From an uncultured Christensenella sp. (GTDB taxonomy: Bacteria; Bacillota; Clostridia; Christensenellales; UBA3700), in NCBI GenBank assembly GCA_950079155.1, contig CATMWH010000008.1, positions 20,779-84,778 on the forward strand: DNA of 64,000 nucleotides, in the 5' to 3' direction. Position 1 is the stretch's first letter. The number at the start of each line of letters is the position of its first letter. This document shows positions 462 to 24,646 of the stretch, in pieces. A program made the translations under genes and the position numbers. The notes under the pieces are model-generated. The model made no database searches and had not been told where the DNA came from. It saw only the letters and a list, made by a program, of their open reading frames with translations.

Positions 462-3400
462 ATGAGTACAAGAAGTTATATATGCGCTAAGCAACCAGAT
501 GGAACGTATAAAGGGGTATATTGTCATTATGACGGATATCTCGAATACAACGGAGCAATGTTGCTTGATTTTTATCCAACGAAAGAAGATGCAGATAAAA
601 TCTTGCAACTTGGCAGTTTATCAACGTTAAAAGAAAAATTGGAGCCGGATCCGGGAACGGAACACTCGTTTGAAAATAGACAATCAGACGTAACCGTTGC
701 CTATGGCCGAGATAGAGGTGAAACTGACGTTGAGGCAGTAACAGTAGATTTCAAGGAGTTAAATAAGCCAGAAAGTTGGATTGATTATATCTATATTCAC
801 GATGGTGAAAAGTGGAAATATTTTGAGAATGGCAAATTTGACAACGGCTTTAGAGACGTTGACGAGGATCTTCAGCATATTTGGCAGGATCACGGTTTTG
901 ATGAGCGCCACAAAGGCTTCTACGGTGCAGTAACCGATGACGAGTATGATTCAGTTAGAAGGACGTTAGCACAAGAAAAAATAGAAGAGAGGAAGGTGGA
1001 CGAAGCCAAGAAGGAAGAACCGAAGAAAGTAGACAAGAAAGAAACAACGTCGAGTTGGCAAAAAGTTCAAGAGAATAGACAAAAACTCATAGACCAAATT
1101 CGTGCCGAAATATCCAAAGGCAATTTGGAGTGGCATCACTATTTAAGTGGAAAAGCATTACCCCATAACGGTGAGACGTCGAGACCTTATCAAGGTGCTA
1201 ATCGACTTTATTTGGCATTGAGCGCAGCCGTGCAAGGCTTCGATGATCCAAGATGGTATACATTTAATCAAGTCGAGAAAATGGGATTGAAGATTGAAAA
1301 GGGTCAAAAGGGAACACGCATCGAAAAGTTTACCGTGTGGGATAAACTTGCAAAAAAGGAAATCCGCACAAGAAAAGACCTTGACGAGATAACGGCGGGC
1401 TTGAGCGAAGAAGAACGTAAGCAATACGAGAAAGATAACTTGACCGTTTACATAAATCAATACGTTGTATTTAACGGACAACAAGTCAAAGGACTTGAAA
1501 AGTTTGTTGCGCCGACGTTGGATGAGAGCCAAAAAGACGAACGTTGCGAGAGAATATTGGAGCAAAGTTTTGTGCCGATTGAATATTCTCAATCGAGAAC
1601 AACCGCATCGTATGATTTAATCGAAGATAAAATCAATATGCCATTGAGGGATAAATTCATCTCAACGGACGAATTGTACGGCACGGCCTTCCACGAAATG
1701 TCGCACGCGACCGGGGCAAAGACCAGATTAAACCGTAACTTTGAAAACTTTGACGGTTTCGGTTCGGAGTCTTATGCAAGAGAAGAAGTCGTAGCCGAAT
1801 TGAGTTCATTGTTTTTGCAACAGGATTTAGGCGTAGACCTAAAGAGAGCAGCAATCCAGAATAGCGCAGCGTATATCCAAGCGTGGGAAAAAGTATTGGC
1901 AAAGCCAGACGAATTTTTTAGAGCCATTGCCGCAGCGGACAAGGCGTCTAAATATATTATAGAAAATTGCTCTCAAGCGCAAAAACAAGAACAAGAAACT
2001 TCTCAGATTCAAGGCTCCGATAAAGACTTGCATAAGAATACGCTCGTCGTAAATTTCTACGCCGGTCCCGGAGCCGGGAAAACTACGGCCGCACTAGAAG
2101 TTACGGCGGCGCTTAAAAAAGCCGGCTACGACGTAGAGTACGTTCCGGAGTATGCAAAGGAACTTGTAAGAGAAGGAAAGTTGGATATGCTCGACGATCA
2201 AAAAATTGTAATCGACGAGCAGTATAAACGTCTTCATAATATGGCAGTCAGTGGCGTTCAAATAGTAGTCACCGATTCACCGGTGTTACTTGGCCAAGTA
2301 TATGGACAAGGTAAAATCGACGAAGCATACCATAACAAAATACGTGAGTATTACGACAGTTTTGACAACTTTAATCTCCGTGTTGTCCGGGCGGAAGGTC
2401 CGTATCAACAAGAGGGCAGAGTTGAGAACGAAGCGCAAGCCAAAGAACTTGACGATCGTATCAAAGCAATGCTCAAAGAAAACAAAGTTTTCTATGGCAA
2501 TTATCAAAGAGATGAGATAGAGAAGACTGTAGAACGTATCTCGCAAACGTACAATCGTCTGTATGGTGAACACAAAGAAAAAAAAGAAGAAGACACAAAA
2601 GCCTTTAATAGAGATGAACATATAGACGAAGCAGTTGCAGGCTATATGTTGGAGAATCCTAATAAATCTTTACGAGATAGTATGTACGACGTGGTACAAA
2701 TGTCTGACGACACCGTTGAAGAATATGCGGACAAATATCGTGCTGAGAAACAGCCGATAATGGTCCCCAGTCAACTCGAAGGTTGGTCAGATTGGTCAAC
2801 CGAGGAAATAAAAAATAAGGAGGCGAGAGAAGCGGCTGAATGGCTTTTAAAGAACCATTTAGAGAATGAAAAAGACGTTAAGAATGCATTTTATTGTAGG
2901 CAAACGTCATCTATGTCCGACGACCCGAGAGCCGAAGAAAATGACGAACAAACAATCTTAAGAGTGGCTAACTATTACAAAGGCAAAATCGGTGGAGCCC
3001 AAGAGCAAGTTTCAAAGCAGGCAAATCAAACTGAAAAGTCCAATAAAGAAAACCTTTTATCGCCACGTGAATATTACGCACAGAAGAACGCAAAACGTCT
3101 TGATGACCTTAATGCTAACGTTCCTCAAGAGATGAAGGATCTCAAAAATTGGTGCGCTTTCAAAACTTACTATGACGGAGCCACTGGCAAGAAGAAAAAA
3201 ATTATCCTTTCGCCAGAAACGGGCGAGTGGGCGAAATGCAACGAGCCGGCAACGTGGTCAACTTACGAGAAGGCAATGCAGTTCGCAAAGGAGCGGAACT
3301 GTGAAGGACTTAGTTTTGCTTTGGATCTACAAAACCGTATTGCGTGCGTTGACTTAGATCATTGCATTGGAGACAAGGGAATGCGTTCGAATCTTTGTTG

Positions 3401-4034
3401 GAATATTTTGAATGCAGCGCCGAATACTTACGCTGAGAAAAGTGTGTCCGGCAAAGGCGTACACGTATTTTTTAAGGCAGATAACGTCACGCTTGGTTGC
3501 AATATTAAAGACGACGTGAAGGGACTTGAATGTTACGACAGGAGCAAGTTTATATCGATGACCGGCAATGTCATAAGTAAGACCACCGCCATCGAAGACA
3601 AGCCACAAAAACTCATAGACCTTGTACGTGAGGAATTGGGACCAAGTCAACGTAGCGAAACGTCGGATAATCAAACAGTACGAAAATCAAGCGGCACGCC
3701 GTTTATGTTTGATTCTGAAGTTGTTGAGGCAATAAAGAGAAGTAAAGCAGGCCCCGACTTTGAAAGATTGTATCGAGGCGAGGATCTTTGCGGAGATAAA
3801 TCTAAGAGCGATGCCAAGTTAATGAGTATGCTTGCGTTCTTTACCGATTGCAATCCAAGTCAGATGAAATCTATATTTGAATCGTCCGGCTTGTATCGAG
3901 AAAGCAAGGGCGAGAAGTACGTAGATCGTACAATTGATTTTGCTATAAGGTCGTTAAAGACCCGTCCTTCGAATTTGGGGAAAAGCAATACAAAGCAGCA
4001 ACAAAAGGCAAGTGGCAGTCAAAAAACAAAATAA
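462..4034 (+). CDS. multidomain conjugative-element protein: N-terminal unknown domain, ArdC-like ssDNA-binding N-domain, HExxH zincin, P-loop NTPase, AEP-type primase-polymerase with PriCT-like C-terminus
   Basis: The likely start is ATG 462 after GGAGG (449-453); the track ORF starts at TTG 420. Motifs: ArdC-N-like RPYQGANRLYL...RWYTFNQV; HEMSH (1692-1706); Walker A GPGAGKTT (2064-2087); AEP motifs VDLDHC (about 3347-3364) and GKGVHVFF (3450-3473). The C-terminal tail is K/Q/S-rich. Confidence 0.85.
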   Translation: MSTRSYICAKQPDGTYKGVYCHYDGYLEYNGAMLLDFYPTKEDADKILQLGSLSTLKEKLEPDPGTEHSFENRQSDVTVAYGRDRGETDVEAVTVDFKELNKPESWIDYIYIHDGEKWKYFENGKFDNGFRDVDEDLQHIWQDHGFDERHKGFYGAVTDDEYDSVRRTLAQEKIEERKVDEAKKEEPKKVDKKETTSSWQKVQENRQKLIDQIRAEISKGNLEWHHYLSGKALPHNGETSRPYQGANRLYLALSAAVQGFDDPRWYTFNQVEKMGLKIEKGQKGTRIEKFTVWDKLAKKEIRTRKDLDEITAGLSEEERKQYEKDNLTVYINQYVVFNGQQVKGLEKFVAPTLDESQKDERCERILEQSFVPIEYSQSRTTASYDLIEDKINMPLRDKFISTDELYGTAFHEMSHATGAKTRLNRNFENFDGFGSESYAREEVVAELSSLFLQQDLGVDLKRAAIQNSAAYIQAWEKVLAKPDEFFRAIAAADKASKYIIENCSQAQKQEQETSQIQGSDKDLHKNTLVVNFYAGPGAGKTTAALEVTAALKKAGYDVEYVPEYAKELVREGKLDMLDDQKIVIDEQYKRLHNMAVSGVQIVVTDSPVLLGQVYGQGKIDEAYHNKIREYYDSFDNFNLRVVRAEGPYQQEGRVENEAQAKELDDRIKAMLKENKVFYGNYQRDEIEKTVERISQTYNRLYGEHKEKKEEDTKAFNRDEHIDEAVAGYMLENPNKSLRDSMYDVVQMSDDTVEEYADKYRAEKQPIMVPSQLEGWSDWSTEEIKNKEAREAAEWLLKNHLENEKDVKNAFYCRQTSSMSDDPRAEENDEQTILRVANYYKGKIGGAQEQVSKQANQTEKSNKENLLSPREYYAQKNAKRLDDLNANVPQEMKDLKNWCAFKTYYDGATGKKKKIILSPETGEWAKCNEPATWSTYEKAMQFAKERNCEGLSFALDLQNRIACVDLDHCIGDKGMRSNLCWNILNAAPNTYAEKSVSGKGVHVFFKADNVTLGCNIKDDVKGLECYDRSKFISMTGNVISKTTAIEDKPQKLIDLVREELGPSQRSETSDNQTVRKSSGTPFMFDSEVVEAIKRSKAGPDFERLYRGEDLCGDKSKSDAKLMSMLAFFTDCNPSQMKSIFESSGLYRESKGEKYVDRTIDFAIRSLKTRPSNLGKSNTKQQQKASGSQKTK

Positions 4035-4609: not shown

Positions 4610-5059
4610 ATGGAAAATAGGACTGTCCAAAAGCGAATTAGAATTTACGAAGAAAGTCTTTGGCAGTATATAGACAAACTGCTTAGGGTAGAGCCTTTCG
4701 ATGGAAATTTTAACGAAGTGATAAATCAAGCATTAAAAATTGGACTTCCAAGGCTTTACGAATTGACGTTCGACCCGAAGGAATACTACAAGCGGTTAAG
4801 CCAAGAAGAAGTCGAAACCGAGGTAACTAGGGAAATAAAAGATTTGTCTTTAACTGTTGACGAGGTGAGTGTCCAAGTTGGAATCATAAAATATTTGCTC
4901 TCGATTTTATTCAACATAGAGGGACACAAACTAGAGGGCAAGGTCTTGACCGTGGATATGCTTGAGAGCGGAATATTCGCCTCGTTACCAAAGAACTTGC
5001 AAGAGATTGAAAACACGATGATAGAGAACACAAGGAAAAATAGGAGTAGTAAGAAATGA
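4610..5059 (+). CDS. putative relaxosome accessory protein (RHH-like N-terminus)
   Basis: ATG 4610 lies 8 nt after GGGAG. The N-terminus KRIRIYEESLWQYIDKLL looks like an RHH strand-helix. The stop overlaps the relaxase start (ATGA at 5056). Confidence 0.45.
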   Translation: MENRTVQKRIRIYEESLWQYIDKLLRVEPFDGNFNEVINQALKIGLPRLYELTFDPKEYYKRLSQEEVETEVTREIKDLSLTVDEVSVQVGIIKYLLSILFNIEGHKLEGKVLTVDMLESGIFASLPKNLQEIENTMIENTRKNRSSKK

Positions 5060-6336
5060 GCGTAGTTTTTAATATATCATACACACCAGCACAACCGAAG
5101 AAAAATGCGACGGAGTTCCAGGCGGTAGAGTGGAAGAACGAAAGGGCTTTTTATGACCTATCGGCTGACTATAACTACGTTACCTATTCTCTCAATGGTC
5201 AAAAGACGGCAAAACACAAGGATTATTTGGACTATATGGAGAAGGATACTGGGGCGTTTAATCTTGATAGACCGTTGACGCCAGAGAACGTTAAGGATAT
5301 CAAAGAACGTCTCAAGAAGTCGAAGTCGATAATTTGGCACGGTTTTATATCTTTTGACAAAGAGACAAGCGCTGCATTTACTACGCCGGAACAAGCACGT
5401 AAATTTTTAAAACAAACGATGGGCGCTTTGTTCGAAAATTCGCATCTTGACAAAGACAACATAGAAATAATGGCGAGTTTGCACGTTGACCGTTCCCATC
5501 ATCACCATATACACTTTGAGTTTTGGGAAAAGGATCCAAAGCGTCTTGATAAGAAGAACGGTGAGAAAAAATTCACGCAAAAGGGGTGTTTTAATCAAAG
5601 GTGCATAGATAATTACTTGATAGCGTCAAGTTTGGCGCTCGAGGACAACAAGAATGATTTTCACATTGCTCGAGACAATGCATTGGCAAGGCTCAAGGAA
5701 CTTATGCCACAGCATAAGAATAAGCAAAGTGAAATTGGCGCTAAATTGGCAGAAGTTGCAAGCATTTTGCCACGTAGCGGAAGGCTTGGATATAATAGCG
5801 ATAATATGTCAGCCTTGAGAGAGCAGGTAGACAAGGCAGTAGATTATATAGTTGCTAGAGACGATAAATTGAAACAATTTGTACGTGAAACGTATGGAGA
5901 GATAATAAAGAGAGAGAATCGAGCGCAAGAATTGGCGAAAGCAAACAAGATACTTTGGACTCAAGGTGGAAGATTTAAGCCAGAGGAAATCGAAGGCAAG
6001 TTGACTGAAGAGCAAATGAAGAAGTTTGCATTGAGTAATAAATTTGCTTGCGTAGATAAACTGCGTCCAGAGTTTAGGGCAAGGCTTGGACAGATTGTAA
6101 TAAACGCTGCAAAATGGATTAAAGAGAAGAAAGTAGCAAATGCGAAGAATTGCCGAAACGCTGGCAAGAATGCTATGAGAATTGCCGCTAGAAGAGATGC
6201 AATGATGATAAAGCGAGATGTCAAAAAATTCATTTATGGACTTGAGCAAACGCTGTGTAATATCCGTACTGATTTTACACCGTTGTTGCATCAAGCAGAA
6301 TTTGAGATAGCGCAATCACAAAGAAAATACAAATAG
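5056..6336 (+). CDS. putative conjugative relaxase (His-triad nuclease type)
   Basis: His cluster LHVDRSHHHHIHFEFWE resembles the HxDxxxHxHxH metal site of MOBP/MOBQ-type relaxases. It sits next to the repeat-rich gap and upstream of the coupling protein. The family assignment was not verified. Confidence 0.6.
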   Translation: MSVVFNISYTPAQPKKNATEFQAVEWKNERAFYDLSADYNYVTYSLNGQKTAKHKDYLDYMEKDTGAFNLDRPLTPENVKDIKERLKKSKSIIWHGFISFDKETSAAFTTPEQARKFLKQTMGALFENSHLDKDNIEIMASLHVDRSHHHHIHFEFWEKDPKRLDKKNGEKKFTQKGCFNQRCIDNYLIASSLALEDNKNDFHIARDNALARLKELMPQHKNKQSEIGAKLAEVASILPRSGRLGYNSDNMSALREQVDKAVDYIVARDDKLKQFVRETYGEIIKRENRAQELAKANKILWTQGGRFKPEEIEGKLTEEQMKKFALSNKFACVDKLRPEFRARLGQIVINAAKWIKEKKVANAKNCRNAGKNAMRIAARRDAMMIKRDVKKFIYGLEQTLCNIRTDFTPLLHQAEFEIAQSQRKYK

Positions 6337-6554: not shown

Positions 6555-8693
6555 ATGAAGAATGTAAATTGGAAATTTAAATTGACTTTTGCGGCAGTCC
6601 TTGGAACAATGGTAGCCGTTATTGTCGGGGTCATAATGACCTTAATAAGGTTTAAAGGAAAGATTTCTATGCAAGCGTATTTTTCGACGCTCGGCAAAGG
6701 AAGTTATTGGCTTTTGTTGTTTGTAGTATTTGTTGCTATTGGAACTTGGTTTTTGGCGGAGCACCGCATAAGAGCCGATAAAGATGTTGTGAAAGATAAC
6801 GAAGGCGAAACCAGTGAACTTATGAGCATTAGTGATATAAAGAAAAGTAAGGATTTTGTTGTCGCAGATTTTTCCGATCTTCCAAATATCAAGGATGGGA
6901 TTGTGCTACAAGCTAGAAAGGCTAAAAATAATATAAAGGTTGTTATGTCGAGCAAGCCTAATCACGTTCTAGTAATAGGAACAACCGGTGCAGGTAAGAC
7001 GCAAGGCTTTATAAATCCTACGATTCAAGTATTGATGCAGACAAAGACAAAACCGTCAGTCGTCATTACTGATCCAAAAGGAGAGTTGTTTGATACACAC
7101 GCTGCAGCATTTCTACAAAAAGGCTATAAGGTTTTGGAGTTAGACTTGGATCAACCATATTATTCAAGCAAGTGGAATCCGTTTGACGTGCTTAGGGAGA
7201 GAATAGATAAAATCAATAAATTAAACGTTGACGGAGATTCAGAAGAAACGAAGGTCAAAATTCAAATTTTGCGTGATGAAATATACGAGTTGGCAAAAGA
7301 CTTGACGGATGCAATCTGTCCGCTTGAGAAATCTTCAGATATGGGATGGCAGTTAGGCGCTAGGTCTTTAGTCAACGCTATTGTCCTTGCATTGTGTGAA
7401 GACTATGAGGATGGATTGTTTGAGAGCAAGCAATTTGGCTTTGCGACATTGTATCACATAGTATTTGATTATCTTTCTGCGGATGACACTGTGTTGAAAG
7501 ATTACTTATATGAGAGTAGAGATCTAAACTCAAAAGTTAAGGGATTGGCGAAACAAGTATTGGAGACACAAGAAAAGACTTTGACAAGTTATCTATCTGA
7601 AGTATATAAGCACGTTGAATGGTTGAGTGACTCTGGCATTTTGTCAATGACATCAGGCTCAGATATAGATTTATATTCAATGGACGAGCAACCAACAGCG
7701 CTATTCTTAAAAATACCGGACGAGAAGAAAACTCGACATAGACTTGTAACGCTTTTGATCACTCAAATGTACAAGACTCTTGTAGATAAGACCAAGCGCA
7801 ATAAGGCGAGTGGTGAGACTGAAGAATTGGAGTTGAAGAGGACAGTATATTTCTTGTTGGACGAATTTGGCAATTTGCCGGCATTTAATGACCTTGCCGG
7901 AATGATTACTGTCGGTCGTAGTAGAAGGATGTTCTTTGAGATGGTAGTACAGAATTATGCGCAGTTGGCAAATAAATACGGCAAAGAAGTAGCAGATATA
8001 GTCAAGTCGCAGTGTGGTACTAAAATCTTTCTTGGCTCTGACGATGCCAATACTATCAATGAGTTTAGTTCAATTTGCGGTAAAAAGATTGTCGCGAATT
8101 CTAATATTACAACGTCGTATCAGCAAAATTCGGCGTCGACAGGCACAGGCGTAAAAGAAATACCGCTTATTTATCCAACGGAATTAAAAAATCTTAATTC
8201 AGGAGATAGTTTTGGTAACGCAGTCGTTTTGCCGTTTGGGCATTTTGCGTTCAAGAGTAAATATACACCGTCGTATCAGTGTTCAAAAATTTATATAATG
8301 AAAGCGCCACCGCAGAGTTTAAAGCAAGCGCACTATTATGATGAGATGGATCACGTCTTTGACATCACAAGCAAAATAGCAAGAGACAATGCTATTCGTG
8401 AAGAGATGAAGAAAATGGAAGATGAGTTGAGGGCAATGCAAGAACAGCAACAAGCCAAGAAACCTAGCGCGATGTCGTCAGCAAACAAGTCCGACATTTT
8501 GCTTGAGCAGGTCAATGTGTTAAAGCAATTCTTGCCGGAAGAGATGGCGGACTTTGAGACATTGGATTTGGACACTCAATTGGCAAAATTAGCTGAATTA
8601 AAAAGTAAGGCAGGGAGTATGGAATTGATTTTTAAAATAACTGATTTAGAAATAAGACTTAAAAATAGTGAGGTGAAGACAAATGACAAATAG
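6555..8693 (+). CDS. type IV coupling protein (VirD4/TraG family)
   Basis: N-terminal TM segments, Walker A VIGTTGAGKTQG and Walker B-like VYFLLDEFGNLP. Size and architecture are typical of T4CPs. Confidence 0.9.
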   Translation: MKNVNWKFKLTFAAVLGTMVAVIVGVIMTLIRFKGKISMQAYFSTLGKGSYWLLLFVVFVAIGTWFLAEHRIRADKDVVKDNEGETSELMSISDIKKSKDFVVADFSDLPNIKDGIVLQARKAKNNIKVVMSSKPNHVLVIGTTGAGKTQGFINPTIQVLMQTKTKPSVVITDPKGELFDTHAAAFLQKGYKVLELDLDQPYYSSKWNPFDVLRERIDKINKLNVDGDSEETKVKIQILRDEIYELAKDLTDAICPLEKSSDMGWQLGARSLVNAIVLALCEDYEDGLFESKQFGFATLYHIVFDYLSADDTVLKDYLYESRDLNSKVKGLAKQVLETQEKTLTSYLSEVYKHVEWLSDSGILSMTSGSDIDLYSMDEQPTALFLKIPDEKKTRHRLVTLLITQMYKTLVDKTKRNKASGETEELELKRTVYFLLDEFGNLPAFNDLAGMITVGRSRRMFFEMVVQNYAQLANKYGKEVADIVKSQCGTKIFLGSDDANTINEFSSICGKKIVANSNITTSYQQNSASTGTGVKEIPLIYPTELKNLNSGDSFGNAVVLPFGHFAFKSKYTPSYQCSKIYIMKAPPQSLKQAHYYDEMDHVFDITSKIARDNAIREEMKKMEDELRAMQEQQQAKKPSAMSSANKSDILLEQVNVLKQFLPEEMADFETLDLDTQLAKLAELKSKAGSMELIFKITDLEIRLKNSEVKTNDK

Positions 8694-14462: not shown

Positions 14463-14693
14463 TTGGGCGTCCTTATAATAGGACGCTCAAGATACTGCGC
14501 TAAAGACGAAAGAAAGGGTAAGCGATTGGTTTTTGACATAACGTTTGTTAAAGAAGATGTTCTTGAGAGGTATCAAGCGCTACATCAAAGTACCAAACAT
14601 ATACTTGGCGAAATAAGATATGAGTACATTGATGAATATTTGGAAGTGTGTGCGATATTAGACGATATAGCACAGAAGTATTTGAGTAAGTAA
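14463..14693 (+). CDS. hypothetical protein (start uncertain; no ATG in frame)
   Basis: Only TTG starts are available (14463, or 14526 after AAGGG). The stop is embedded in the first GTAAAGAC motif pair. It may not be a real gene. Confidence 0.25.
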   Translation: MGVLIIGRSRYCAKDERKGKRLVFDITFVKEDVLERYQALHQSTKHILGEIRYEYIDEYLEVCAILDDIAQKYLSK

Positions 14694-14710
14694 AGACAAA
14701 TGGTAAAGAC
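14690..14710 (+). repeat. GTAAAGAC motif pair 1 (direct, 13-nt register)
   Basis: GTAAAGAC at 14690 and 14703. Confidence 0.9.
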
Positions 14711-15809: not shown

Positions 15810-17252
15810 ATGAAAATATTTTTTCTAAAAATTTTAATGTGGTTGCAAATTGGTTTATCTCGGCTTGTGGATATGGTGATGCAACTTTTTTCGGTATTCT
15901 CGGGTATCGAAACAATAAAAGTCGATGGTAAAGAAGAGTCGTTGTTGCTCTATTTTCTAGGTAACAAGACTGTAACGAGCGTTTTCTGGGCTATATTGGT
16001 CATTGGCGTATTTTGTTTGTTCATCTTTACTACTATTGCAATAATCAAGAATATGGTAGTGATCAAAAAGACAGTCGCGCAGATTGTTGGCAAGATGTTC
16101 ATTTCAATGTTATCTATGATAATTGTAGTCATCTGCCTATTTGGCTTTATATTCGGCGCAAACTGTGTGCTTGCGGAAGTCAACGTCGCCTTTAATCAAG
16201 GCTCCAATTTAACTATTGGACAACAACTTTTTGCGGCGTCTATTCCGGATGATGCTTGGTCAAAGAATACCGATTATGCGCACGAAGACGAAGACGGCGT
16301 AATGAGAGGAATGAAAGCAATTTTTGGTACAAATGAAGATGGTAGTATAAAAAACAGTTGGAACGGTGTGACACCAGATAAAGTTTTTGGAGTTAAAGAC
16401 ACATCGTGGATGTTTGAAGATGATTTGAAGAAATTTAAAGAAGGAAAATATGAAATTGTGCAAATTTATAAATACGATTTCTTTATCGGCTTACCGGCGG
16501 CAGTAATTATTACCATCACAATGTTTATGGCGATAATGGGACTTGTTACTAGACTATATGACCTTGTGTTTATCTTCCTGACGTCTCCACTTATAATGTC
16601 CACGTTACCGCTTGATGACGGCGCCAAATTTAAGTTATGGCGAGAGACGGCGATATCTAAGACGTTAGTCGCATACGGTTCGGTATTTGCTGTCAATATA
16701 TACGTTATCCTATTGCCGCATATAAGTAAGTTGAGCATACCGGGCAATGCTTTCTTAACAGCATTGATGCAAGTATTACTCATAATCTGCGGCGCGTTGA
16801 CCATATCCAATGGACAGGTATTCTTTGCCAGATTGCTTGGAACGGATGCGCAAGAGAGTAGACAGGCAGCGCACGGATTTAGGACGATGTTTGCCGGTAT
16901 TATGGGAACTAGCAGAGCCGTCAAAGGCGCGGCGCGTATGACTTTTGGACAATACAATGCTTATACCGGGAAAAGGGAACGCGGACTTATTCAAGGTGCA
17001 GGAAAACTAGGCGGAGCAGTGGGAACGATGCTTACTGGCGGATTCAAGGATAAGGATGGCAATGCGATTGGATTTGGTAAAGGCGTAAGCAACAAAATGG
17101 GCGCTATGAAAGATAAGTTAAGGACAAGTTGGCAAAATAACAAGGGCTTGGCCGGCACTAGTGTCAAAACCGCAAAAGCAGGCGGCAAAGCCTTAAAAGG
17201 GTTGCGTAACTTGCGAAATATAAAAAAACACGGATTTGATATGGATCTGTAA
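15810..17252 (+). CDS. polytopic membrane protein, VirB6/TrbL-like position
   Basis: Multiple hydrophobic helices and a Gly/Lys-rich C-terminal tail. It lies between the pilin-like and VirB4-like genes. The call rests on topology and synteny only. Confidence 0.6.
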   Translation: MKIFFLKILMWLQIGLSRLVDMVMQLFSVFSGIETIKVDGKEESLLLYFLGNKTVTSVFWAILVIGVFCLFIFTTIAIIKNMVVIKKTVAQIVGKMFISMLSMIIVVICLFGFIFGANCVLAEVNVAFNQGSNLTIGQQLFAASIPDDAWSKNTDYAHEDEDGVMRGMKAIFGTNEDGSIKNSWNGVTPDKVFGVKDTSWMFEDDLKKFKEGKYEIVQIYKYDFFIGLPAAVIITITMFMAIMGLVTRLYDLVFIFLTSPLIMSTLPLDDGAKFKLWRETAISKTLVAYGSVFAVNIYVILLPHISKLSIPGNAFLTALMQVLLIICGALTISNGQVFFARLLGTDAQESRQAAHGFRTMFAGIMGTSRAVKGAARMTFGQYNAYTGKRERGLIQGAGKLGGAVGTMLTGGFKDKDGNAIGFGKGVSNKMGAMKDKLRTSWQNNKGLAGTSVKTAKAGGKALKGLRNLRNIKKHGFDMDL

Positions 17253-17263
17253 AGGAGTGAGAT

Positions 17264-20098
17264 ATGTTGAAATACATACCTAAAAAGACAAAGATAAAAA
17301 GTACGATATGGAAATCATATTCATTAAAAGACGTGCTTATAGTAGGTATAATGTTTGCAGTTGTAGTTGCGTTGTTAATGAGCAATTTAAAAGGTAAGTG
17401 GTTTATAGGGATAGGAACGGCAATCGTTTGTATGTTTGTAATGTTGCCATCGTCTAAGGATACTTTAATATATGAAGAAATATTAAATCTTATAAAGTAT
17501 ATTTTTAGTAAAAAAAAGTACGTTGGCGCGCAAGTGGACAAACTAGTACCATATATGGGCTTTGAAGAAGATGGAACTATTAGATACCCAGACTATTACG
17601 GACGAGTTATCCGTATAGGCTGTAAGACGTTTGCGCTTGAGACTGAGTATGCGCAAGAGAGAGATATAGAGAGCCTTGCTAAAGCGCTTTCTTGTCTTGA
17701 TACAGGCAAGGTAATGGATATTGTAAAGATAGATAGACCAATAATATTTGATAGTTATATAAAAGAACTAGAAGATAAGTTGAGTTTACTTGGCAAATCA
17801 AGAACCAAGGCAACTAGAATTCGACGTGCAATACTTGAATCAAGAATTGCTCAACTCAAATATATGAACTCACAGGATCCTGTATATAAGTCCGAATACT
17901 ATATCGTGATCTATGACGGAATACTCAAAGAACTCAATCGCGTTGCAGATCAAATAAGCGCATATTTGAGGGGAGCAGAGTTGGATTGCGAAATATTGAA
18001 CAATGCTAAAGACGTTGCTATCTTTTTAAAATATTGCAATGTGCGCAACTTCGATGAGCGCGAGTCAGAAGGCAAGACACCTCAAGAGTTGCTTGCTTGG
18101 GTAAAACCGACTGAAATTAAATTCCATAGTAGCGGATATACGATAAATGGTGTAAAGGCATTTAATTATGCGATCGCTGATTATCCGTTGACTGTTGATG
18201 CGGCGTGGGGCGCTGAGTTGTTTGATATGGATAAGACTAAGGTTGTAATGCACCTTGTTCCTGTGGATCAGAACAAGGCAATATCAAGAGTGGATAAGGT
18301 TTGTCGAGAACTTTTAGCAAGAGAAGAAGCATACAAGGCTAGTGAGGTTCTTGAGCAAGAAACTCACTTAGATAGTATGTCTGCGCTGTTGACGTCGTTG
18401 CAGAATGGCGGAGAAAACCTTTACGACGTAACTACCGTCGTGACAGGCTTTTGCTATGAAGACAACGAAAGAGCCTTTAAGAAAAGTATCAATAGCCGTA
18501 TCCGAGTACGTGGCTTTTCTACAGATAATTTATACGTTCGTCAATTGAACGGATTTGTGACGTCGAATATCTCAAGACGTTCGTCGTTGAGGAATATAGA
18601 GCGTGGCATCAATGGCGGAAGTATCGCATCTGTTTTTCCATTTGTGCATACAACTATGCTAGAGTCAGGTGGCGTACTTTACGGCACCGGCGCATACCCA
18701 GTCATTTGGAATATGTGGAAGAAAGATGGCACGCACCGTAACGCAAATACGATTATATTCGGTCGTCCTGGTTCAGGTAAAAGTTATTTCTTGAAATCAC
18801 TTTTGTCGCAATCACTTGGAGACGGTTGTTTATGTTTTATCATAGATCCGGAGAATGAGTATGGAGATCTTGTCCGCAACGTAGGCGGAGAAATGATTGA
18901 CGTTGGATCGGCAAGCAAAGGTTGTCTAAATCCGTTCCATATCTATCAGATATTGACAGAAGATGGCAATGTTGCGCCGCCGAGCCAAGTCTACTATTCG
19001 CATCTAAAGACGCTTGAAAGTTTCTTTAAAGTCATACTCGAAGGCTGTGATGCAGATACTCTTGAGTTAATAAACAATGTCGTCAATGACGTTTATGAAG
19101 CAAAAGGAATTAAGCCTGAAACTGATGTGTCTCAATATACTGCTGAGCAATTTCCGGTTTTTGATGATTTGTTTACAATGTTGACACAAAAAGAACAAGA
19201 CCAAATTAGTGATAAAGTAATCGATACTTACATAAAGGCTCAAAACTATGTCAAGAAGTTTACCACAGGCGGACGATACAGTGACCTTTGGGGCAAGCCA
19301 TCTACGTTGACGTCTGATAACGTAATGACGGTATTCAACTTCCAAAGCCTTTTTGCCAACAAGAATAACCTTGTTGCAAATGCTCAAATGCTTTTGGTAT
19401 TTAGATTTTTGGAGCAACAAGTAATCAATATAAGAGAGAAAAATCGTAGCGCGAAGAAACCGCATAGAATTGTAATCGTTGCTGACGAGGCTCACTTGTT
19501 TATTGATCCAAAATATCCTATAGCAGTTGATTTCTTCTACCAAATGACTAAACGTATTCGTAAATATGACGGAACGTTTATTCCGGCAACTCAAAACGTC
19601 GCAGACTGGTTGGCAAATGATGAACTTAAATCCAAGACGTCGGCTGTAATAAAAAATACGCAATACACGTTCGTATTTGCGCTTAATCCGTCCGACGTAG
19701 AGGATTTAGCGGAGTTATACAAAAATAATCCTATCAATGAAGAAGAGCAGAATCTAATAATATCTGCAGGTATGGGAGATTGCTTCTATATTGGTGCGTA
19801 CAATGAAAGATTTACGTTTAGCATAGTCACAAACGAACTTGTCGAGGCAGTATTTAGTGATAAGAATTTTGTGCGTAATTGGCTTGATAAAAAGGTCATA
19901 GCGCAAAACGGCAACGGCGCAACTGCACAAGAGGCAGAGAACGCCGACGCCGAGACGCCTCAAGAAGAAGTGCCGCAAAATGTAGATGTGCAGCCACAAA
20001 ACGTGGAGGCACAACCGCAAGGTGCAGAAGATAATCAACAATCACAAGAACGAGAATATGAGGAGGGAAACGACAATGAGAGTAATAGGATTGGTTAA
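17264..20098 (+). CDS. VirB4/TraE/TrsE-family conjugation ATPase with N-terminal TM (VirB3-like) segment
   Basis: Walker A FGRPGSGKSYF and Walker B RIVIVADEAHLF in a 944-aa protein. The C-terminus is a low-complexity P/Q/E tail. Confidence 0.9.
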   Translation: MLKYIPKKTKIKSTIWKSYSLKDVLIVGIMFAVVVALLMSNLKGKWFIGIGTAIVCMFVMLPSSKDTLIYEEILNLIKYIFSKKKYVGAQVDKLVPYMGFEEDGTIRYPDYYGRVIRIGCKTFALETEYAQERDIESLAKALSCLDTGKVMDIVKIDRPIIFDSYIKELEDKLSLLGKSRTKATRIRRAILESRIAQLKYMNSQDPVYKSEYYIVIYDGILKELNRVADQISAYLRGAELDCEILNNAKDVAIFLKYCNVRNFDERESEGKTPQELLAWVKPTEIKFHSSGYTINGVKAFNYAIADYPLTVDAAWGAELFDMDKTKVVMHLVPVDQNKAISRVDKVCRELLAREEAYKASEVLEQETHLDSMSALLTSLQNGGENLYDVTTVVTGFCYEDNERAFKKSINSRIRVRGFSTDNLYVRQLNGFVTSNISRRSSLRNIERGINGGSIASVFPFVHTTMLESGGVLYGTGAYPVIWNMWKKDGTHRNANTIIFGRPGSGKSYFLKSLLSQSLGDGCLCFIIDPENEYGDLVRNVGGEMIDVGSASKGCLNPFHIYQILTEDGNVAPPSQVYYSHLKTLESFFKVILEGCDADTLELINNVVNDVYEAKGIKPETDVSQYTAEQFPVFDDLFTMLTQKEQDQISDKVIDTYIKAQNYVKKFTTGGRYSDLWGKPSTLTSDNVMTVFNFQSLFANKNNLVANAQMLLVFRFLEQQVINIREKNRSAKKPHRIVIVADEAHLFIDPKYPIAVDFFYQMTKRIRKYDGTFIPATQNVADWLANDELKSKTSAVIKNTQYTFVFALNPSDVEDLAELYKNNPINEEEQNLIISAGMGDCFYIGAYNERFTFSIVTNELVEAVFSDKNFVRNWLDKKVIAQNGNGATAQEAENADAETPQEEVPQNVDVQPQNVEAQPQGAEDNQQSQEREYEEGNDNESNRIG

Positions 20099-20855
20099 TC
20101 AAAAAGGCGGAGTGGCAAAGACCACTACCGCCAGCGCCCTAGCGTATGGTTTGGCGCGAAACGGCAAAAGGACACTTTTAGTGGACTTTGACCCACAAGG
20201 CAATTTGACAGTTGCGTGCGGCATTGTTACCAATGAAGGTAATCCACCAGCGCTTAAATTGATAGATTTAAAGACAAGCGCTGAGATTGAGAATTTAGAG
20301 CCGGGTTTGGACTTTGTTGCGTCTGGTATTGGTCTCGAGACCGCGAATATGATACTTGCCGGTAAGCCGTGCCGGGAATTGTATCTCAAGCGAGCACTCA
20401 AGAAGTTTGAAAACGAATACGACTACGTAGTCATTGATAGCAATCCGTCTTTGTCAATTATAACGTTGAACGTGCTTTCGGCTTGTGATGAGATAATCGT
20501 GCCTTTCAAGCCGGAATTTAATTCAGAGAAAGGTGTAAATCTCTTGATTGAGACTGTTGAAGAGATTCGCCAAATCAATGAGAATTTAAGAATTAGAGGA
20601 TTTCTTGTGACAATGGCGGATCGTCGTCGACGTTCAACAAATGAGAGCGTAGAGTATGTCAAGGAGCAAGCGCAAGGTTGCCAAAGTAAAGTCTACACGA
20701 GTTGGATCCGTCAATCGGTCGTTGCTGCAGATGCGCCAAAAATCGGCAAGAGTGTCTATGACTACCGCCCGGGCAGTCCGCTTGTTGCAGACTATGAGGC
20801 GTTCGTTCAAGAATTTTTAAAGGAGGAAGAAGATGCAGACACAAGAAAAAAATAG
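20076..20855 (+). CDS. parA: ParA/Soj-family partition ATPase
   Basis: ATG 20076 follows GAGGAGGG. Deviant Walker A in MRVIGLVNQKGGVAKTTTA, then LVDFDPQGN. The track ORF start at 19986 lies inside the VirB4 gene. Confidence 0.9.
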   Translation: MRVIGLVNQKGGVAKTTTASALAYGLARNGKRTLLVDFDPQGNLTVACGIVTNEGNPPALKLIDLKTSAEIENLEPGLDFVASGIGLETANMILAGKPCRELYLKRALKKFENEYDYVVIDSNPSLSIITLNVLSACDEIIVPFKPEFNSEKGVNLLIETVEEIRQINENLRIRGFLVTMADRRRRSTNESVEYVKEQAQGCQSKVYTSWIRQSVVAADAPKIGKSVYDYRPGSPLVADYEAFVQEFLKEEEDADTRKK

Positions 20856-21051
20856 CAGCAGTAGTGGAACTGTATTGAGTTTACTTTCTATACATAGAGT
20901 GGTAGACATCCCGCAAAAAGATAAGATGAAAATGGTTAATTTTAGGATGAAAGAGAGCGAAATTGAAGCATTTGATTTATATTGCGAGGCAAACGGTATT
21001 AAAAATAAGAGTGAACTAATACGCGCGTTAATTTGCAACCTAATTAAGTAA
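20833..21051 (+). CDS. ribbon-helix-helix (CopG/ParG-like) DNA-binding protein
   Basis: ATG follows AAGGAGG and overlaps the parA 3' end. The C-terminal segment KMVNFRMKESEIEAFDLYCEANGIKNKSELIRALI shows the RHH pattern, and the N-terminus looks flexible. Confidence 0.6.
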   Translation: MQTQEKNSSSSGTVLSLLSIHRVVDIPQKDKMKMVNFRMKESEIEAFDLYCEANGIKNKSELIRALICNLIK

Positions 21052-21072
21052 GTAAAGACAATTTGTCTTTAC
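21052..21072. repeat. GTAAAGAC motif pair 3 (inverted; perfect 10+1+10 palindrome)
   Basis: GTAAAGACAA-T-TTGTCTTTAC starts immediately after the RHH gene stop codon. Confidence 0.9.
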
Positions 21073-21106
21073 AAATGTAAAATCATAGTTATTTTGTTAA
21101 AACGTA

Positions 21107-21135
21107 TTGACAAGATAAATAGATAGGCGTATAAT
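21107..21135 (+). promoter_or_regulatory. sigma-70-type promoter
   Basis: TTGACA (21107-21112), 17 nt, TATAAT (21130-21135). Confidence 0.7.
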
Positions 21136-21141
21136 AACAAT

Positions 21142-21264
21142 ATACAAGTCAGCGATGCCCCGCTAGAGAGGGCCTTTGATAATCGGTGATGCCCAACCAA
21201 CTTAATAGGGCCTAGACTTGTAGAGTACAGACGCCATAAAACAGATGCCGTCTGTTTTTATTTT
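21142..21264 (+). ncRNA. candidate structured small RNA / leader (ToxI-like position)
   Basis: It lies between a consensus promoter and a hairpin plus T-run (21227-21264). Closing stem TACAAGTC/GACTTGTA (21143-21150 / 21215-21222). Two degenerate units each carry GATGCCC (21154, 21188) and AGGGCCT (21169, 21207). Confidence 0.35.
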
Positions 21265-21278
21265 AGGAGAACTTTAAG

Positions 21279-22124
21279 ATGAAAGAAAAAATGAATATAT
21301 ATTATCTTGATAAGGCATATCAAGATTACATAAAACCGCAGACAAGAAACAGTCAAGCAGCAGAAAAAGAAGAAAGCAAAAGACGCACGTCGGGAGTGGT
21401 GTTGTTTGGCTTTGGCGGAACAAAGAACTATTTTGTGCCATTGAGAGTTGGCGAACAGGAACAGAAGAAGTCTGAAATGGGATTGACGCACGGTCTCAAT
21501 AAAGGCAAGAATGGTTATCTAGATTTTAGTGAGATGGTTCCGGTACAAAATAAAGATCTTCAATTGTTGGACATTTCTAACTTGCCAACGTGCAATCTCA
21601 AGAGGAACTTGCAACGACAAGCAAGGTATATACAGAGAGAACAAAAGAAGATAATGGAATGCGCAGCGGAAGTATACTTGAATTGCGTCCATTATCCAGA
21701 GAGTAAGATTGCATCAGAATGTAACGACATTCTTATGCTCGAAGAGAAAGAACGCTTGTGGAGAGAAGGAAAAGTCCAAAAGGTCGAGAAAAAAGTGGTA
21801 AAGCCAGCCGAAGAAAAAAAGACTGAAGAACCGGCGGACAAGCCAACGAAAAAGACTTACAAAGAGACAAACACCTATAAATTAGCCGTAGAAAAATACG
21901 GACAAAAAGTAGCGGATAAGATGATCGCTGACGCTCTTAAGCAAGCGATGACACAAGAGAAAGAAGACAAGAAGACGGAGAAAAAACAAACTACATCAAC
22001 TTCATCGACAAGCAAAAAGACAGTAAAGAAAGTAGTTGCATCGTCTTCAAAGAAATCGACGTCGGCTGAAAAAGGAATGGTTACAACCGTAACAATCCAA
22101 AGTTCGCCTGCAAAAGGAAAGTAA
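21279..22124 (+). CDS. ToxN/AbiQ-like domain protein with K/E/S/T-rich C-terminal extension
   Basis: The N-terminal ~165 aa follow the ToxN/AbiQ pattern as I recall it: IYYLDKAYQDYI; SGVVLFGFGGTKNYFVPL; GYLDFSEMVPV...LQLLDISNLP; LKRNLQRQARYIQ; CNDILMLEEKERLW. The family PL[ST]SPK motif reads PLRVGE here. Confidence 0.6.
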   Translation: MKEKMNIYYLDKAYQDYIKPQTRNSQAAEKEESKRRTSGVVLFGFGGTKNYFVPLRVGEQEQKKSEMGLTHGLNKGKNGYLDFSEMVPVQNKDLQLLDISNLPTCNLKRNLQRQARYIQREQKKIMECAAEVYLNCVHYPESKIASECNDILMLEEKERLWREGKVQKVEKKVVKPAEEKKTEEPADKPTKKTYKETNTYKLAVEKYGQKVADKMIADALKQAMTQEKEDKKTEKKQTTSTSSTSKKTVKKVVASSSKKSTSAEKGMVTTVTIQSSPAKGK

Positions 22125-22128
22125 ATAT

Positions 22129-22149
22129 GTAAAGACGATTTGTCTTTAC
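22129..22149. repeat. GTAAAGAC motif pair 4 (inverted)
   Basis: GTAAAGAC-GATTT-GTCTTTAC starts 4 nt after the stop of the ToxN-like gene. Confidence 0.9.
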
Positions 22150-22183
22150 AAACAAAATAAATCATATAGAATTGGAGAAAAAT

Positions 22184-22519
22184 ATGCAAAAAATGCTAAT
22201 TCAATTAGATGTAGAAAAAATTGAGAGAGATAATAAGTACGACATTAAAGATATGTGGAAAGCCATAGATGAGATCTTTGCTAAACAAAAATGTGTAAAA
22301 GAAGTCAATGAAGACGGCTCGGCAATGTATTTGGGTAATCCAAATACTGATAATTATTTGGCAGACTTTGGAATAGCTTATATTACATTAAAGTCTAGTT
22401 CTTGGTTTCTTGAGTATGCATTAAAATGGATATGGTATGATAACGATGAAGATGAAAATGGCTCCTTTGAAGAAAGTGACACTCTATATAGAGTTAAGAA
22501 AAAATTAGGAATGATTTAG
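22184..22519 (+). CDS. hypothetical acidic protein
   Basis: ATG 22184 follows GGAG. 111 aa with no motif I recognise. It sits directly upstream of the VapD-like gene. Confidence 0.6.
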   Translation: MQKMLIQLDVEKIERDNKYDIKDMWKAIDEIFAKQKCVKEVNEDGSAMYLGNPNTDNYLADFGIAYITLKSSSWFLEYALKWIWYDNDEDENGSFEESDTLYRVKKKLGMI

Positions 22520-22531
22520 GCGAATTTTATT

Positions 22532-23077
22532 ATGGAAAAGGGAAAGATAAAAGCATTAAATTTTGATTTAGATACAAATGTTATGAAATCATTAGGAGTG
22601 TATCCAGATGGATATAGACAATTAGGCAAGGCTCTTCACGAGGCAGGTTTTTTGCATAGACAAGGCTCTGGATATGTATCAAAGGGAAAACTTCTGAACG
22701 ATGACGTCAATGATATAGTTGAGAGTTTAACAGTAAAAAATCCGTGGCTGGTTAAATGTGTAAACAAGTTAGACGTTACAGACGTTGGAAAACAACACGA
22801 CTTAACAAAAGTAGTTCTTGCAGCATTGTCATCAAAAGCAGGTGTAAAACTCAAAGAAAAAGATGATAACTCTTTAGTTCAACAGTACAAGCAAACTTCT
22901 GCGTATAAATCTAACGTTGAGAAGTTCGGACAGAAAACCGCAGATAAGATGCTTGCCGAGTCAATTAAGAATTTGACAGCACAAGAGAAAAAAGGAAGAT
23001 GGACGTCGCCTAAAAAACAAACAATTAAAGCCCCTCAAGGCAAAACGGAGAAGAATAATTCTGGAAAAGGAAAGTGA
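22532..23077 (+). CDS. VapD-like (Cas2-superfamily) protein with K-rich C-terminal extension
   Basis: KALNFDLDT...GYRQLGKALHEAGFLHRQGSGY...NPWLVKCVNKLDVTDVGKQHDLT parallels VapD (YAIAFDL...AYTDIGAVLAKFGFVRTQGSLY...), recalled from memory. The C-terminal module is shared with the 21279 gene. Confidence 0.65.
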   Translation: MEKGKIKALNFDLDTNVMKSLGVYPDGYRQLGKALHEAGFLHRQGSGYVSKGKLLNDDVNDIVESLTVKNPWLVKCVNKLDVTDVGKQHDLTKVVLAALSSKAGVKLKEKDDNSLVQQYKQTSAYKSNVEKFGQKTADKMLAESIKNLTAQEKKGRWTSPKKQTIKAPQGKTEKNNSGKGK

Positions 23078-23078
23078 A

Positions 23079-23114
23079 CTGTCTTTACAAATCGTCTTTA
23101 CAATTTGCCTTTAC
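23079..23114 (-). repeat. GTAAAGAC motif cluster 5 (three units on minus strand)
   Basis: GTCTTTAC at 23081 and 23094, GCCTTTAC at 23107, in a 13-nt register. It starts 3 nt after the VapD-like gene stop. Confidence 0.9.
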
Positions 23115-23130
23115 CAACAGAAAATTTTTT

Positions 23131-23162
23131 ACGTCATATTGAAGAGATATGGCGTTTTTTAT
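23131..23162 (+). terminator. rho-independent terminator
   Basis: ACGTCATAT/ATATGGCGT 9-bp stem followed by TTTTTTAT. Confidence 0.65.
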
Positions 23163-23236
23163 TGAAAAATTTTTACTAATTATGCTAAAATCTACTAAAA
23201 CTAATTAGGCATTTATAGGCCATAAGGGAGATAATC

Positions 23237-24601
23237 TTGAATACACAAGAAAAATTAAAAGATTTAGTAGAGCAATGCGTAAGTTCAATCATTTCAATGT
23301 TTAGCGAGGCGATAAGCAAAGGCTCGTTTACATTGGCCGTACAAGAGACAAAATCTTTGACGGACAATCTAGGTGTCAATATTTTAGAAACACTATGTAG
23401 AAAAGCCGACAAGATTTATAATGACACTCGAGATAAGCATCAAGTGACGATAAAGGATAAATCCAAGACAAGACATCTAATAACAGAGTTAGGAGAAGTT
23501 ACGCTTGAGCGCATTTGTTATTTTGACAAACGAAGTGGCAAGCGCTTTTTTGCTGTTGACGAAATGTTGGGACTAGAGAAGCGCAGTCGAGTTGAGCAAG
23601 GATTGCAAGCCAAACTTATTGAGCAGGCTACGCTTACGAGTTTTGGAAAGTCTAGTGCAGCGGTAAATAATGCAGTATCTCGACAGACCGTTTATAATCT
23701 CACAAAGAAGTTGAAGACAATAGAGGCCAAAATGCCTGCAGAACGTCGGGATGTCAGCGATATTTATATTGAGGCAGACGAGGATCATATCCATCTGCAG
23801 AACGGTAAGAGCGCCGAAGTCAAGTTGGTCTATGTCCACGATGGGGTAAAGACGATTTGTAAAGACAGAACGCAACTTCAAAATGTTCGATACTTCGTAT
23901 CGGTTGATGACGACCCTGACAAGATATGGAACGACGTTGCGCATTATGTTTATCGGAAGTATTCTATGCTCAATGCTAAGGCGCATATATCTGGTGACGG
24001 TGCGTATTGGATTAAATATGGTCAACATATTTTTCACAAAGCGCAGTATCACATAGACAAATTCCATATTCAAAAATCCGCAACGGCCGTTGCAAAGGGC
24101 AATCGACAAGTACGTAGCAAAATATTGGCCGCAATGAGAAAGAGAGATTACAAAAGTCTGAAGACGGTTTTTCAAGAACAGTATCTCAAGTATACTGAGC
24201 GTACGGAACGTCGCACCATCGCAGAGCAATATTTTTATTTGCTAAATAATATGGAGACGTACGGAATCAAAAACCGGTGCAGCGCAGAGGGGCACGTCTC
24301 TCACGTTCTGTCTGATCGTATGAGTTCTCGGCCAATGGGTTGGTCAAGGGCTGGAGCAGAGCAAATGGCGAAGCTTCGCGCATTTTACTTTAATGGCGGC
24401 AATTTCTTAGATTTAATCCGATATGGAAAAATAGCAGAGGATGATATGCAAGAAATTTATACGACTAGATACAATTCGCACGTCAACGCTGTCAAACTTG
24501 GCGTCGCGCCAACACCAGCAAAAGTATACTCAGTAGCCAGCATTGCGGGGCAAAATACACGAATTTCAAAGCTTTTACGCAGTTTAATAAAAATAAAATA
24601 A
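23237..24601 (+). CDS. DDE transposase, ISLre2/UPF0236-like
   Basis: TTG start after GGGAG. Motifs IYIEADEDHIHLQ, GDGAYWIK and HIDKFHIQK match the ISLre2/UPF0236 pattern as I recall it. 454 aa. Confidence 0.75.
   Translation: MNTQEKLKDLVEQCVSSIISMFSEAISKGSFTLAVQETKSLTDNLGVNILETLCRKADKIYNDTRDKHQVTIKDKSKTRHLITELGEVTLERICYFDKRSGKRFFAVDEMLGLEKRSRVEQGLQAKLIEQATLTSFGKSSAAVNNAVSRQTVYNLTKKLKTIEAKMPAERRDVSDIYIEADEDHIHLQNGKSAEVKLVYVHDGVKTICKDRTQLQNVRYFVSVDDDPDKIWNDVAHYVYRKYSMLNAKAHISGDGAYWIKYGQHIFHKAQYHIDKFHIQKSATAVAKGNRQVRSKILAAMRKRDYKSLKTVFQEQYLKYTERTERRTIAEQYFYLLNNMETYGIKNRCSAEGHVSHVLSDRMSSRPMGWSRAGAEQMAKLRAFYFNGGNFLDLIRYGKIAEDDMQEIYTTRYNSHVNAVKLGVAPTPAKVYSVASIAGQNTRISKLLRSLIKIK
23846..23868 (+). 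repeat. GTAAAGAC motif pair 6 (direct, inside the transposase ORF)
   Basis: GTAAAGACGATTTGTAAAGACAG is the exact reverse complement of 23079-23101. Confidence 0.9.
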
Positions 24602-24646
24602 AAAATATGCCTAAAAAACTTGACACCGTCGAGCGGAATTATTGCG

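Follow-up and report, generated by a model that had tools for sequence, protein, structure and literature searches.

Two neighbouring genes of a conjugative element encode proteins of unrelated ribonuclease (RNase) folds that nevertheless continue into the same short block and a lysine-rich end; what is this shared C-terminal module, and what does it do for the element? The question is raised by a stretch of 64,000 nucleotides (the window) from an uncultured Christensenella sp. (GenBank assembly GCA_950079155.1, contig CATMWH010000008.1, positions 20,779 to 84,778 of the forward strand), the left ~24.6 kb of which are a conjugative element. The module is present on a ToxN-like and a VapD-like protein; it is under purifying selection, is common to different RNase folds within one element and is confined to conjugative elements. 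We propose that block and tail are most likely a portable tag that docks RNase effectors to an element-encoded partner.

The shared block and its basic tail

21279-22124, + strand: protein of the ToxN/AbiQ fold, 281 residues, with a C-terminal extension of 120 residues; ToxN domain at 21291-21755.
21858-21965, + strand: shared block, copy 1 (Y194-E229, YKETNTYKLAVEKYGQKVADKMIADALKQAMTQEKE), predicted to form a small three-helix unit.
21966-22067, + strand: K/S/T-rich linker, net charge +8, predicted to be disordered (predicted local distance difference test, pLDDT, below 50).
22068-22121, + strand: highly conserved C-terminal peptide EKG(M/T)VTTVTIQSSPAKGK of the ToxN-like protein.
22532-23077, + strand: VapD toxin of the VapW-associated clade, 181 residues, with a C-terminal extension; domain at 22550-22813.
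22886-22993, + strand: shared block, copy 2 (Y119-K154, YKQTSAYKSNVEKFGQKTADKMLAESIKNLTAQEKK).
22994-23074, + strand: basic tail GRWTSPKKQTIKAPQGKTEKNNSGKGK of the VapD-like protein.

A sequence-only reading of the window had claimed that two unrelated RNase-type folds share one C-terminal block, and both halves of that claim are borne out. Residues 5-159 of open reading frame (ORF) 21279-22124 match Pfam ToxN_toxin PF13958 (E 1.7e-20), PADLOC assigns the protein to AbiQ (E 3e-16), and its AlphaFold model resembles the ToxN/AbiQ crystal structures 7d8o, 2xd0, 4ato and 4glk (Foldseek E 1e-7 to 5e-6, template-modelling score 0.71-0.75). Residues 7-94 of ORF 22532-23077 match NCBIfam VapD NF041506 (E 2.6e-24; 85 bits, short of the equivalog cut-off of 100), and the protein matches VapD of PDB entry 9kan (9kan_A, E 9.7e-14); the N-terminal FDL aspartate of the Cas2-like VapD domain is present, and this ORF has no Pfam match. 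Aligned with each other by BLASTP, the two proteins are identical at 26 of 59 positions (E 2e-11; residues 181-239 of the ToxN-like protein with 106-164 of the VapD-like protein). The block comprises ~37 residues with the core YKxTxxYKxxVEK[YF]GQKxADKMxAxxxK...QEK, and when the window is translated in all six frames a hidden Markov model (HMM) of it detects two copies only (E 5e-30 and 4e-24; next best 0.48). In the AlphaFold prediction it forms three short helices, with pLDDT 82-91 over the first 30 residues, and the K/S/T-rich remainder, with low pLDDT, appears disordered. The proteins end in ...AKGK and ...GKGK, as had been noticed from the sequence, with the shared pattern S-x-[AG]-K-G-K.

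No copy of the block matches a Pfam family at E below 0.01, HHH included; nor does the block match any PDB sequence or fold, the best Foldseek hit of a block-only model having an E of 7. Homology to the known signal domains BID and XVIPCD was likewise not found (Pfam E below 0.01; PDB fold). Sub-threshold matches in PHROGs, Pfam and PDB (Mistic, TraG-D_C and the C-terminus of T7 endonuclease I) were treated as chance. By these searches, no known domain matches the block.

Distribution and partners of the block

A 41-position profile of the block was run against 1.84 billion representative proteins before the PBECR4 and solo variants described below were discovered, and it retrieved five proteins, all of them ToxN-like or VapD-like. 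A back-translated pattern found three loci in 185,579 species genomes (one genome per species). The block was not found in JGI metagenome contigs or IMG/VR by the pattern scan or in PLSDB by tblastn, and a word-indexed protein search with the block profile, a method ill-suited to queries of 48 residues, returned only a truncated copy of the window protein. All block loci lie within one family of Clostridia/Christensenellaceae conjugative elements, and the gene order at every one of them is VirB4, ParA, ribbon-helix-helix (RHH) protein, toxN, next gene. The upstream genes of this series in the window are:

17264-20098: VirB4-like ATPase.
19986-20855: ParA.
20833-21051: RHH protein.

In two related loci (L021 and L022) toxN is followed by the gene of a PBECR4 RNase (PF18813, E 7.7e-15) that has the block (HMM E 3e-5; hhalign 92.5% probability, E 4.8e-7), with a basic end, at its C-terminus. 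Two further loci possess, with the RHH gene on one side and the toxI promoter on the other, a solo block ORF of 51-53 residues (L010 392-553 and L008 7945-8100), whose sequence MEENKIIGFVTMDTYKQTVEKYGKKGAEKMIDDAVKELLKKRDEEKKTEKKQT is recognized by the HMM with an E of 6e-21. Because it is found also on a third RNase type and as a tiny separate protein, the block is, as far as sequence comparison goes, a portable C-terminal tag, attached to three unrelated endoRNase folds (ToxN, VapD and PBECR4) and standing alone. The wider occurrence for which a profile search had been suggested is therefore real as to partners, but very narrow as to extent, and this narrowness weighs against the sequence-only reading.

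Most of the elements have exactly two block copies in adjacent genes (ToxN and VapD, ToxN and PBECR4, or solo ORF and ToxN). This pairing would suit a protein-protein module, in which the blocks pair with each other or bind the ParA/RHH complex and thus couple two toxin systems, or in which the solo block regulates ToxN. The location of the solo ORF, which corresponds to that of the epsilon antitoxin in omega-epsilon-zeta operons, points in the same direction, as does helix 2 of the block, whose hydrophobic stripe (A22, M25, I26, A29, L30, A33 and M34, read from the sequence) is unbroken and extends beyond the cover provided by helix 1. However, L006 and L007 have a single block copy, and invariant surface lysines followed by a basic tail are atypical of a dimer interface. 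We consider such a role unlikely.

Conservation and selection

The extension is kept in all seven ToxN-like homologues (43-98% identity). When the two clades are compared, the last 18 residues (GTVTTVTIKSSPAKGK) are 87.4% identical and the block 67.5%, against 40.7% for the ToxN domain. Block and terminal peptide have few non-synonymous differences, while their synonymous sites are saturated or nearly so; for the terminal peptide the proportions of non-synonymous and synonymous differences (pN and pS) are 0.02-0.15 and 0.43-0.73, respectively. These two features together indicate that block and end are constrained at the protein level, and the pS/pN analysis rules out recent gene conversion as the source of the block similarity. 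The view that the block is a more specific signal than composition is upheld by the same data.

Composition had been suspected of being a host habit, with good reason. A net charge of +8 or more in the C-terminal 50 residues occurs in 4 of 13 element proteins and in 3 of 25 chromosomal ORFs. Composition by itself is therefore no discriminator, and the +10 and +9 of the last 50 residues of the two tagged proteins are not distinctive in this genome. A host habit accounts for the lysine richness and not for the block. By plain count over the element (window 420-24601), the terminal residue is lysine in 9 of its 13 proteins versus 6 of the 25 chromosomal ORFs, a difference that may be compositional.

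These results also bear on the possibility that the module has no specific function and is a lysine-rich low-complexity tail of an AT-rich host, copied between neighbours by recombination. Basic K/S/T tails do occur on chromosomal proteins of the window, and the two genes adjoin. Nevertheless, the two window copies are only 44% identical as proteins, the orthologues combine saturated synonymous with low non-synonymous change, the block outconserves the catalytic domain, its predicted fold reaches a pLDDT of 91, and it is found again on a third fold and in a solo ORF, all of which make this explanation very improbable.

Other C-terminal modules on VapD relatives

420-4034 (coding sequence), + strand: ArdC-N/zincin-peptidase/AAA polyvalent protein.
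3801-4031, + strand: NrS-1-type helix bundle and K/Q/S tail of the ArdC polyvalent protein.

The VapD domain is found with other C-termini elsewhere. Some homologues are a bare domain of 107 residues, one of which, together with one form of 154 residues, is in a chromosomal-looking context. Others (P0007-P0012, P0021 and P0023), in sister elements, carry an NrS-1-type helix bundle (PF22763) with a K/R end, and their genes adjoin VirB4. This bundle is homologous to the last domain of the ArdC polyvalent protein of the window (E 2e-12 and 5e-17; 33-38% identity); the bundle with its basic tail is thus a second C-terminal module found on unrelated N-terminal domains. The sequence-only reading had described the latter protein as an ArdC-primase with a K/Q/S tail. 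The tail exists, the protein ending in ...KQQQKASGSQKTK, but the protein consists of ArdC-N, a zincin peptidase and AAA, and its only primase-like part is the C-terminal NrS-1 helix bundle.

In a further locus (L016 1-5501) five tandem VapW-VapD pairs, followed by two additional VapW-like genes, lie beside ParA and VirB4. The five VapD paralogues are 52% identical in the toxin domain and 74% identical in a different, helical C-terminal module ending in KKSKGKSKA. In PLSDB the VapD clade is found on Campylobacter plasmids, with 197 of 212 matches on plasmids typed as conjugative; in Campylobacter jejuni plasmid pGB19, a pTet-like conjugative plasmid (L020 3672-4390, one record inspected), VapW-VapD is directly beside virB4/virB2, as it is in the Clostridia elements, and VapD has only a short K/Q-rich end.

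The alternative modules of VapD include nucleic-acid binders, namely the OB-fold of single-stranded DNA-binding protein (SSB; PF00436) and the NrS-1 helix bundle (PF22763). This is one of several observations consistent with a nucleic-acid tether, in which block and lysine-rich tail would bind RNA or single-stranded DNA without sequence specificity, serving as an accessory substrate-binding or localizing domain and, when solo, as a small binding protein. Every N-terminal partner of the block is an endoRNase, lysines K11, K16, K20 and K24 of the block as well as G18 and A22 are invariant or nearly so, and the solo ORF makes sense as a small binding protein. The segment G-Q-K-x-A-D-K-M-h can be aligned, in the expected register, with the latter half of helix-hairpin-helix motifs, a weak resemblance that serves as a lead only (hhalign P 7.5e-4, probability 25%; 11 reference motifs). 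There is also a weak resemblance of block residues 4-32 to residues 91-121 of T7 endonuclease I (YKGSPTSYGEFCEKHGIKFADKLIP; E 0.06-0.2, sub-threshold and probably due to chance), the C-terminus of which is also basic-tailed. On the other side, the block has no significant match to a nucleic-acid-binding family (Pfam, PDB sequences or Foldseek), one would not expect a generic binder to be restricted to one family of elements or to be swapped for different modules in sister elements, and the near-invariant terminal peptide of the ToxN-like protein is left unexplained. A tether is possible, and we rate it only slightly below the export role considered next.

A proposed docking tag for an element-encoded partner

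5056-6336: MobL relaxase, a gene of the conjugative element.
6555-8693, + strand: VirD4/TraG-type coupling protein, candidate receptor of the tag should it serve for export.

In these proteins a variable effector domain is repeatedly followed by a helical module and a basic, disordered end. Since the block is common to different RNase folds within single elements, while the VapD proteins of other elements bear other modules, we favour a tag that docks to a partner specific to the element. In this view one element-encoded protein, most likely the conjugative coupling protein encoded at 6555-8693, would be bound jointly by the three-helix unit and the disordered lysine-rich end. The tagged RNases would then be brought to the type IV channel and pass into recipients along with the DNA, and the putative antitoxins described below (a toxI-like RNA and VapW) would shield the donor as well as any transconjugant that has become established. 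Of the possible roles we rank first, tentatively, such an export through the type IV secretion system (T4SS) via this coupling protein. It is favoured by the occurrence of the tag on three RNase folds and as a solo ORF, by a constraint on the tag above that on the enzyme, by the uniform conjugative synteny, by the variation of the C-terminal module between elements, and by a two-part layout of helical unit and low-pLDDT basic tail that is BID-like.

The closest parallel is with toxins bearing a BID domain and a positively charged tail, FicT and PezT, which have been described as substrates of conjugative T4SS; experiments demonstrated secretion of the FicT toxin VbhT, that of the others being a proposal (Harms et al. 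2017, PMC5675462), and the PezT-BID toxins are from alpha-proteobacterial plasmids (PMC5675462). As in that case, toxins of different toxin-antitoxin families lie beside a conjugative T4SS, have a common helical module with a basic unstructured end, and are accompanied by a neighbouring antitoxin. Unlike BID toxins, the proteins described here match BID neither in sequence nor in fold, their block has ~37 instead of ~100 residues, the element belongs to Gram-positive Clostridia, the block is not on the relaxase, and export is a proposal. Positively charged C-terminal signals are a recognized class of T4SS signals (PMC11288057). A second parallel is provided by polyvalent proteins: those with ArdC and primase domains are transferred in conjugation, and PBECR domains are predicted to be delivered effectors (Iyer et al. 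2017, PMC5512222). An ArdC-N and zincin polyvalent protein is encoded in the window, the block is found on a PBECR4 RNase in a sister element, and in both cases effector domains have been exchanged among proteins that presumably enter the recipient. In contrast to those effectors, the RNases of the window are separate small proteins with their own antitoxins and not domains of one giant polypeptide. As far as text searches show, the block is not described in PMC5512222.

Several points weigh against export. The block HMM finds no copy on the relaxase, the coupling protein, the ArdC protein or any other ORF of the window, whereas BID is shared with relaxases. We know of no T4SS signal in Clostridia systems. 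A solo block ORF without cargo exists (L010 and L008), and an accessory domain for binding nucleic acids would account equally well for the cargo, which is an RNase domain in all three cases. A positively charged C-terminus is not unusual in this AT-rich genome, and the VapD relative with the SSB OB-fold has an SSB-like tip in place of the basic tail. The higher conservation of the C-terminal module among the L016 paralogues could come from gene conversion. The canonical RNase status of the ToxN-fold protein of the window is doubtful on its active-site residues (see below), and it may be no toxin at all. Export and nucleic-acid tethering cannot be separated in silico.

Two putative toxin-antitoxin modules in tandem

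21107-21135, + strand: sigma-70 promoter for the toxI-like RNA and the toxN-like gene, TTGACA-17-TATAAT, matching 12/12 consensus positions and kept in six related loci.
21150-21259, + strand: candidate type III antitoxin RNA, two imperfect repeats followed by an intrinsic terminator.
22184-22519, + strand: VapW-type antitoxin, 111 residues from ATG 22184 (PDB 9kan_B VapW, E 2.7e-7).

Promoter, repeat RNA and terminator constitute a candidate type III antitoxin by their anatomy. The imperfect repeats of ~34 nucleotides, at 21150-21174 and 21184-21212, can each form an H-type pseudoknot from an AGCG/CGCT and a GCCC/GGGC stem, and the terminator consists of a stem (21228-21254) and a T-run (21255-21259). 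The promoter-repeats-terminator layout is kept in six loci; in the alignment of these six sequences 89% of the cells are paired, and four pairs are changed on both sides versus 1.4 in shuffles. The loci of clade B have an insertion of 24 nucleotides between the two repeats. The array was not detected by TRF and matches no Rfam family.

The arrangement resembles ToxIN/AbiQ (PDB 2xd0, 4ato, 7d8o and 4glk) in the ToxN fold and in the strong promoter, candidate structured repeat RNA and terminator directly upstream. It differs in having only two imperfect repeats and no Rfam family, in the 120-residue C-terminal extension, which is absent from the four matched structures (these cover only the N-terminal domain), and in the active site. 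The active site of ToxN comprises Lys33, Thr52, Ser53 and Lys55 (PMC8860590), and the corresponding residues of the window copy are R35, R56, V57 and E59, with PLRVGE in place of PLTSPK. Thr52-Ser53 is replaced by Arg-Val (R56-V57, window 21444-21449) or Arg-Ile in 5/5 members of the window's clade, whereas the relatives in clade B, which are without the VapW-VapD pair, retain Thr-Ser (PLTS). Because of these replacements we describe the product of ORF 21279-22124 as a ToxN-fold protein of uncertain RNase activity. The protein is still under purifying selection, and the RNase role may have shifted from ToxN to VapD in the window's clade.

A VapW gene is located directly 5' of every VapD-like gene that was examined. 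In the window, the mechanically called ORF has 115 residues from TTG 22172; the probable start is ATG 22184, with GGAG 8 nucleotides upstream, which agrees with the MQKMLIQ start of VapW homologues. VapD-VapW of C. jejuni (PDB 9kan) has been reported as a type II toxin-antitoxin pair (PMC11980593). Both proteins match that pair, vapW precedes vapD in tight coupling, and the genes are in a conjugative element next to virB4, as in Campylobacter pTet plasmids; unlike its counterpart, the VapD of the window has the block and a basic tail, while that of Campylobacter has only a short K/Q-rich end, disordered in the crystal. The toxI-like/ToxN anatomy and the VapW-VapD matches together indicate, as read from sequence, that this region holds two successive toxin-antitoxin modules, the first type III-like and the second of type II.

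The GTAAAGAC sites and the rest of the element

21052-21072, no strand: inverted pair GTAAAGAC-N5-GTCTTTAC directly 3' of the RHH gene.
22129-22149, no strand: inverted pair GTAAAGAC-N5-GTCTTTAC directly 3' of the toxN-like stop codon.
23081-23114, + strand: 2.6 direct 13-bp repeats GTCTTTACAAATC past the vapD stop codon, iteron-like.
23237-24601: UPF0236 transposase-like gene.

The motif GTAAAGAC, which had been noted behind both tails, does follow both stop codons but probably belongs to the ParA/RHH partition/operator system and not to the tails. It is present in 14 copies in the window (2.1 expected; 14 reached in 0 of 100 shuffles), and the 8-mers GTAAAGAC and GTCTTTAC form inverted or direct pairs with 13-bp spacing at gene boundaries of the element. 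A part in the tails is ruled out by the occurrence of the motif 3' of the RHH gene, where the position of the inverted pair is kept in L001, L003, L006, L008 and L010, by its absence from three sampled stretches of related elements without ParA/RHH (L011-L013), and by seven tandem 13-bp copies in L021 (12196-12281), at a place equivalent to that after vapD. The pair at 22129-22149 overlaps the -35-like hexamer of a promoter-like site (22145-22172) upstream of vapW, and further pairs are located at 14690-14710 and, inside the UPF0236 gene, at 23846-23866 (the latter also in L006 and L010). From their arrangement, the sites are probably the operator/centromere of a ParA/omega-like RHH system.

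In every clade of the element it is the UPF0236 gene, with its internal GTAAAGAC pair, that ends the conserved segment; the gene therefore looks like a fixed part of the element rather than a random insertion. Window positions 15840-24630 are matched at 99% identity by a contig of a Clostridia metagenome-assembled genome (MAG) that diverges beyond this point, so the shared segment ends just past the UPF0236 gene. Relatives of the element come from mouse-gut metagenomes and one uncultured Christensenellaceae MAG, and a megablast of the region against PLSDB gave no match. Contigs of mouse-gut metatranscriptomes cover the toxN-like gene, including the part encoding the tail, and vapD; the depth is low, so these contigs indicate presence only, and RNA ends cannot be read from them.

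Implications

To our knowledge, next to nothing is known of the signals that direct protein export in Gram-positive conjugation systems, and the purpose of toxin transfer in conjugation is an open question even in proteobacteria. It is conceivable, though we would not call it likely, that the block and tail represent the first recognizable tag for protein export by a conjugative type IV system of Gram-positive bacteria (Clostridia), marking RNase effectors (VapD, PBECR4 and the ToxN-fold protein) that would be injected with the DNA and would either punish recipients in which the element fails to establish or cleave RNAs of host defence. Being small, defined by its sequence and transferred in evolution among three RNase folds in one family of gut elements, the tag offers an experimental handle on these questions. 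If the module is instead a tether to RNA or DNA, it would be a new small accessory domain for toxin RNases. Under either reading, two different toxin-antitoxin systems of one element would be functionally linked.

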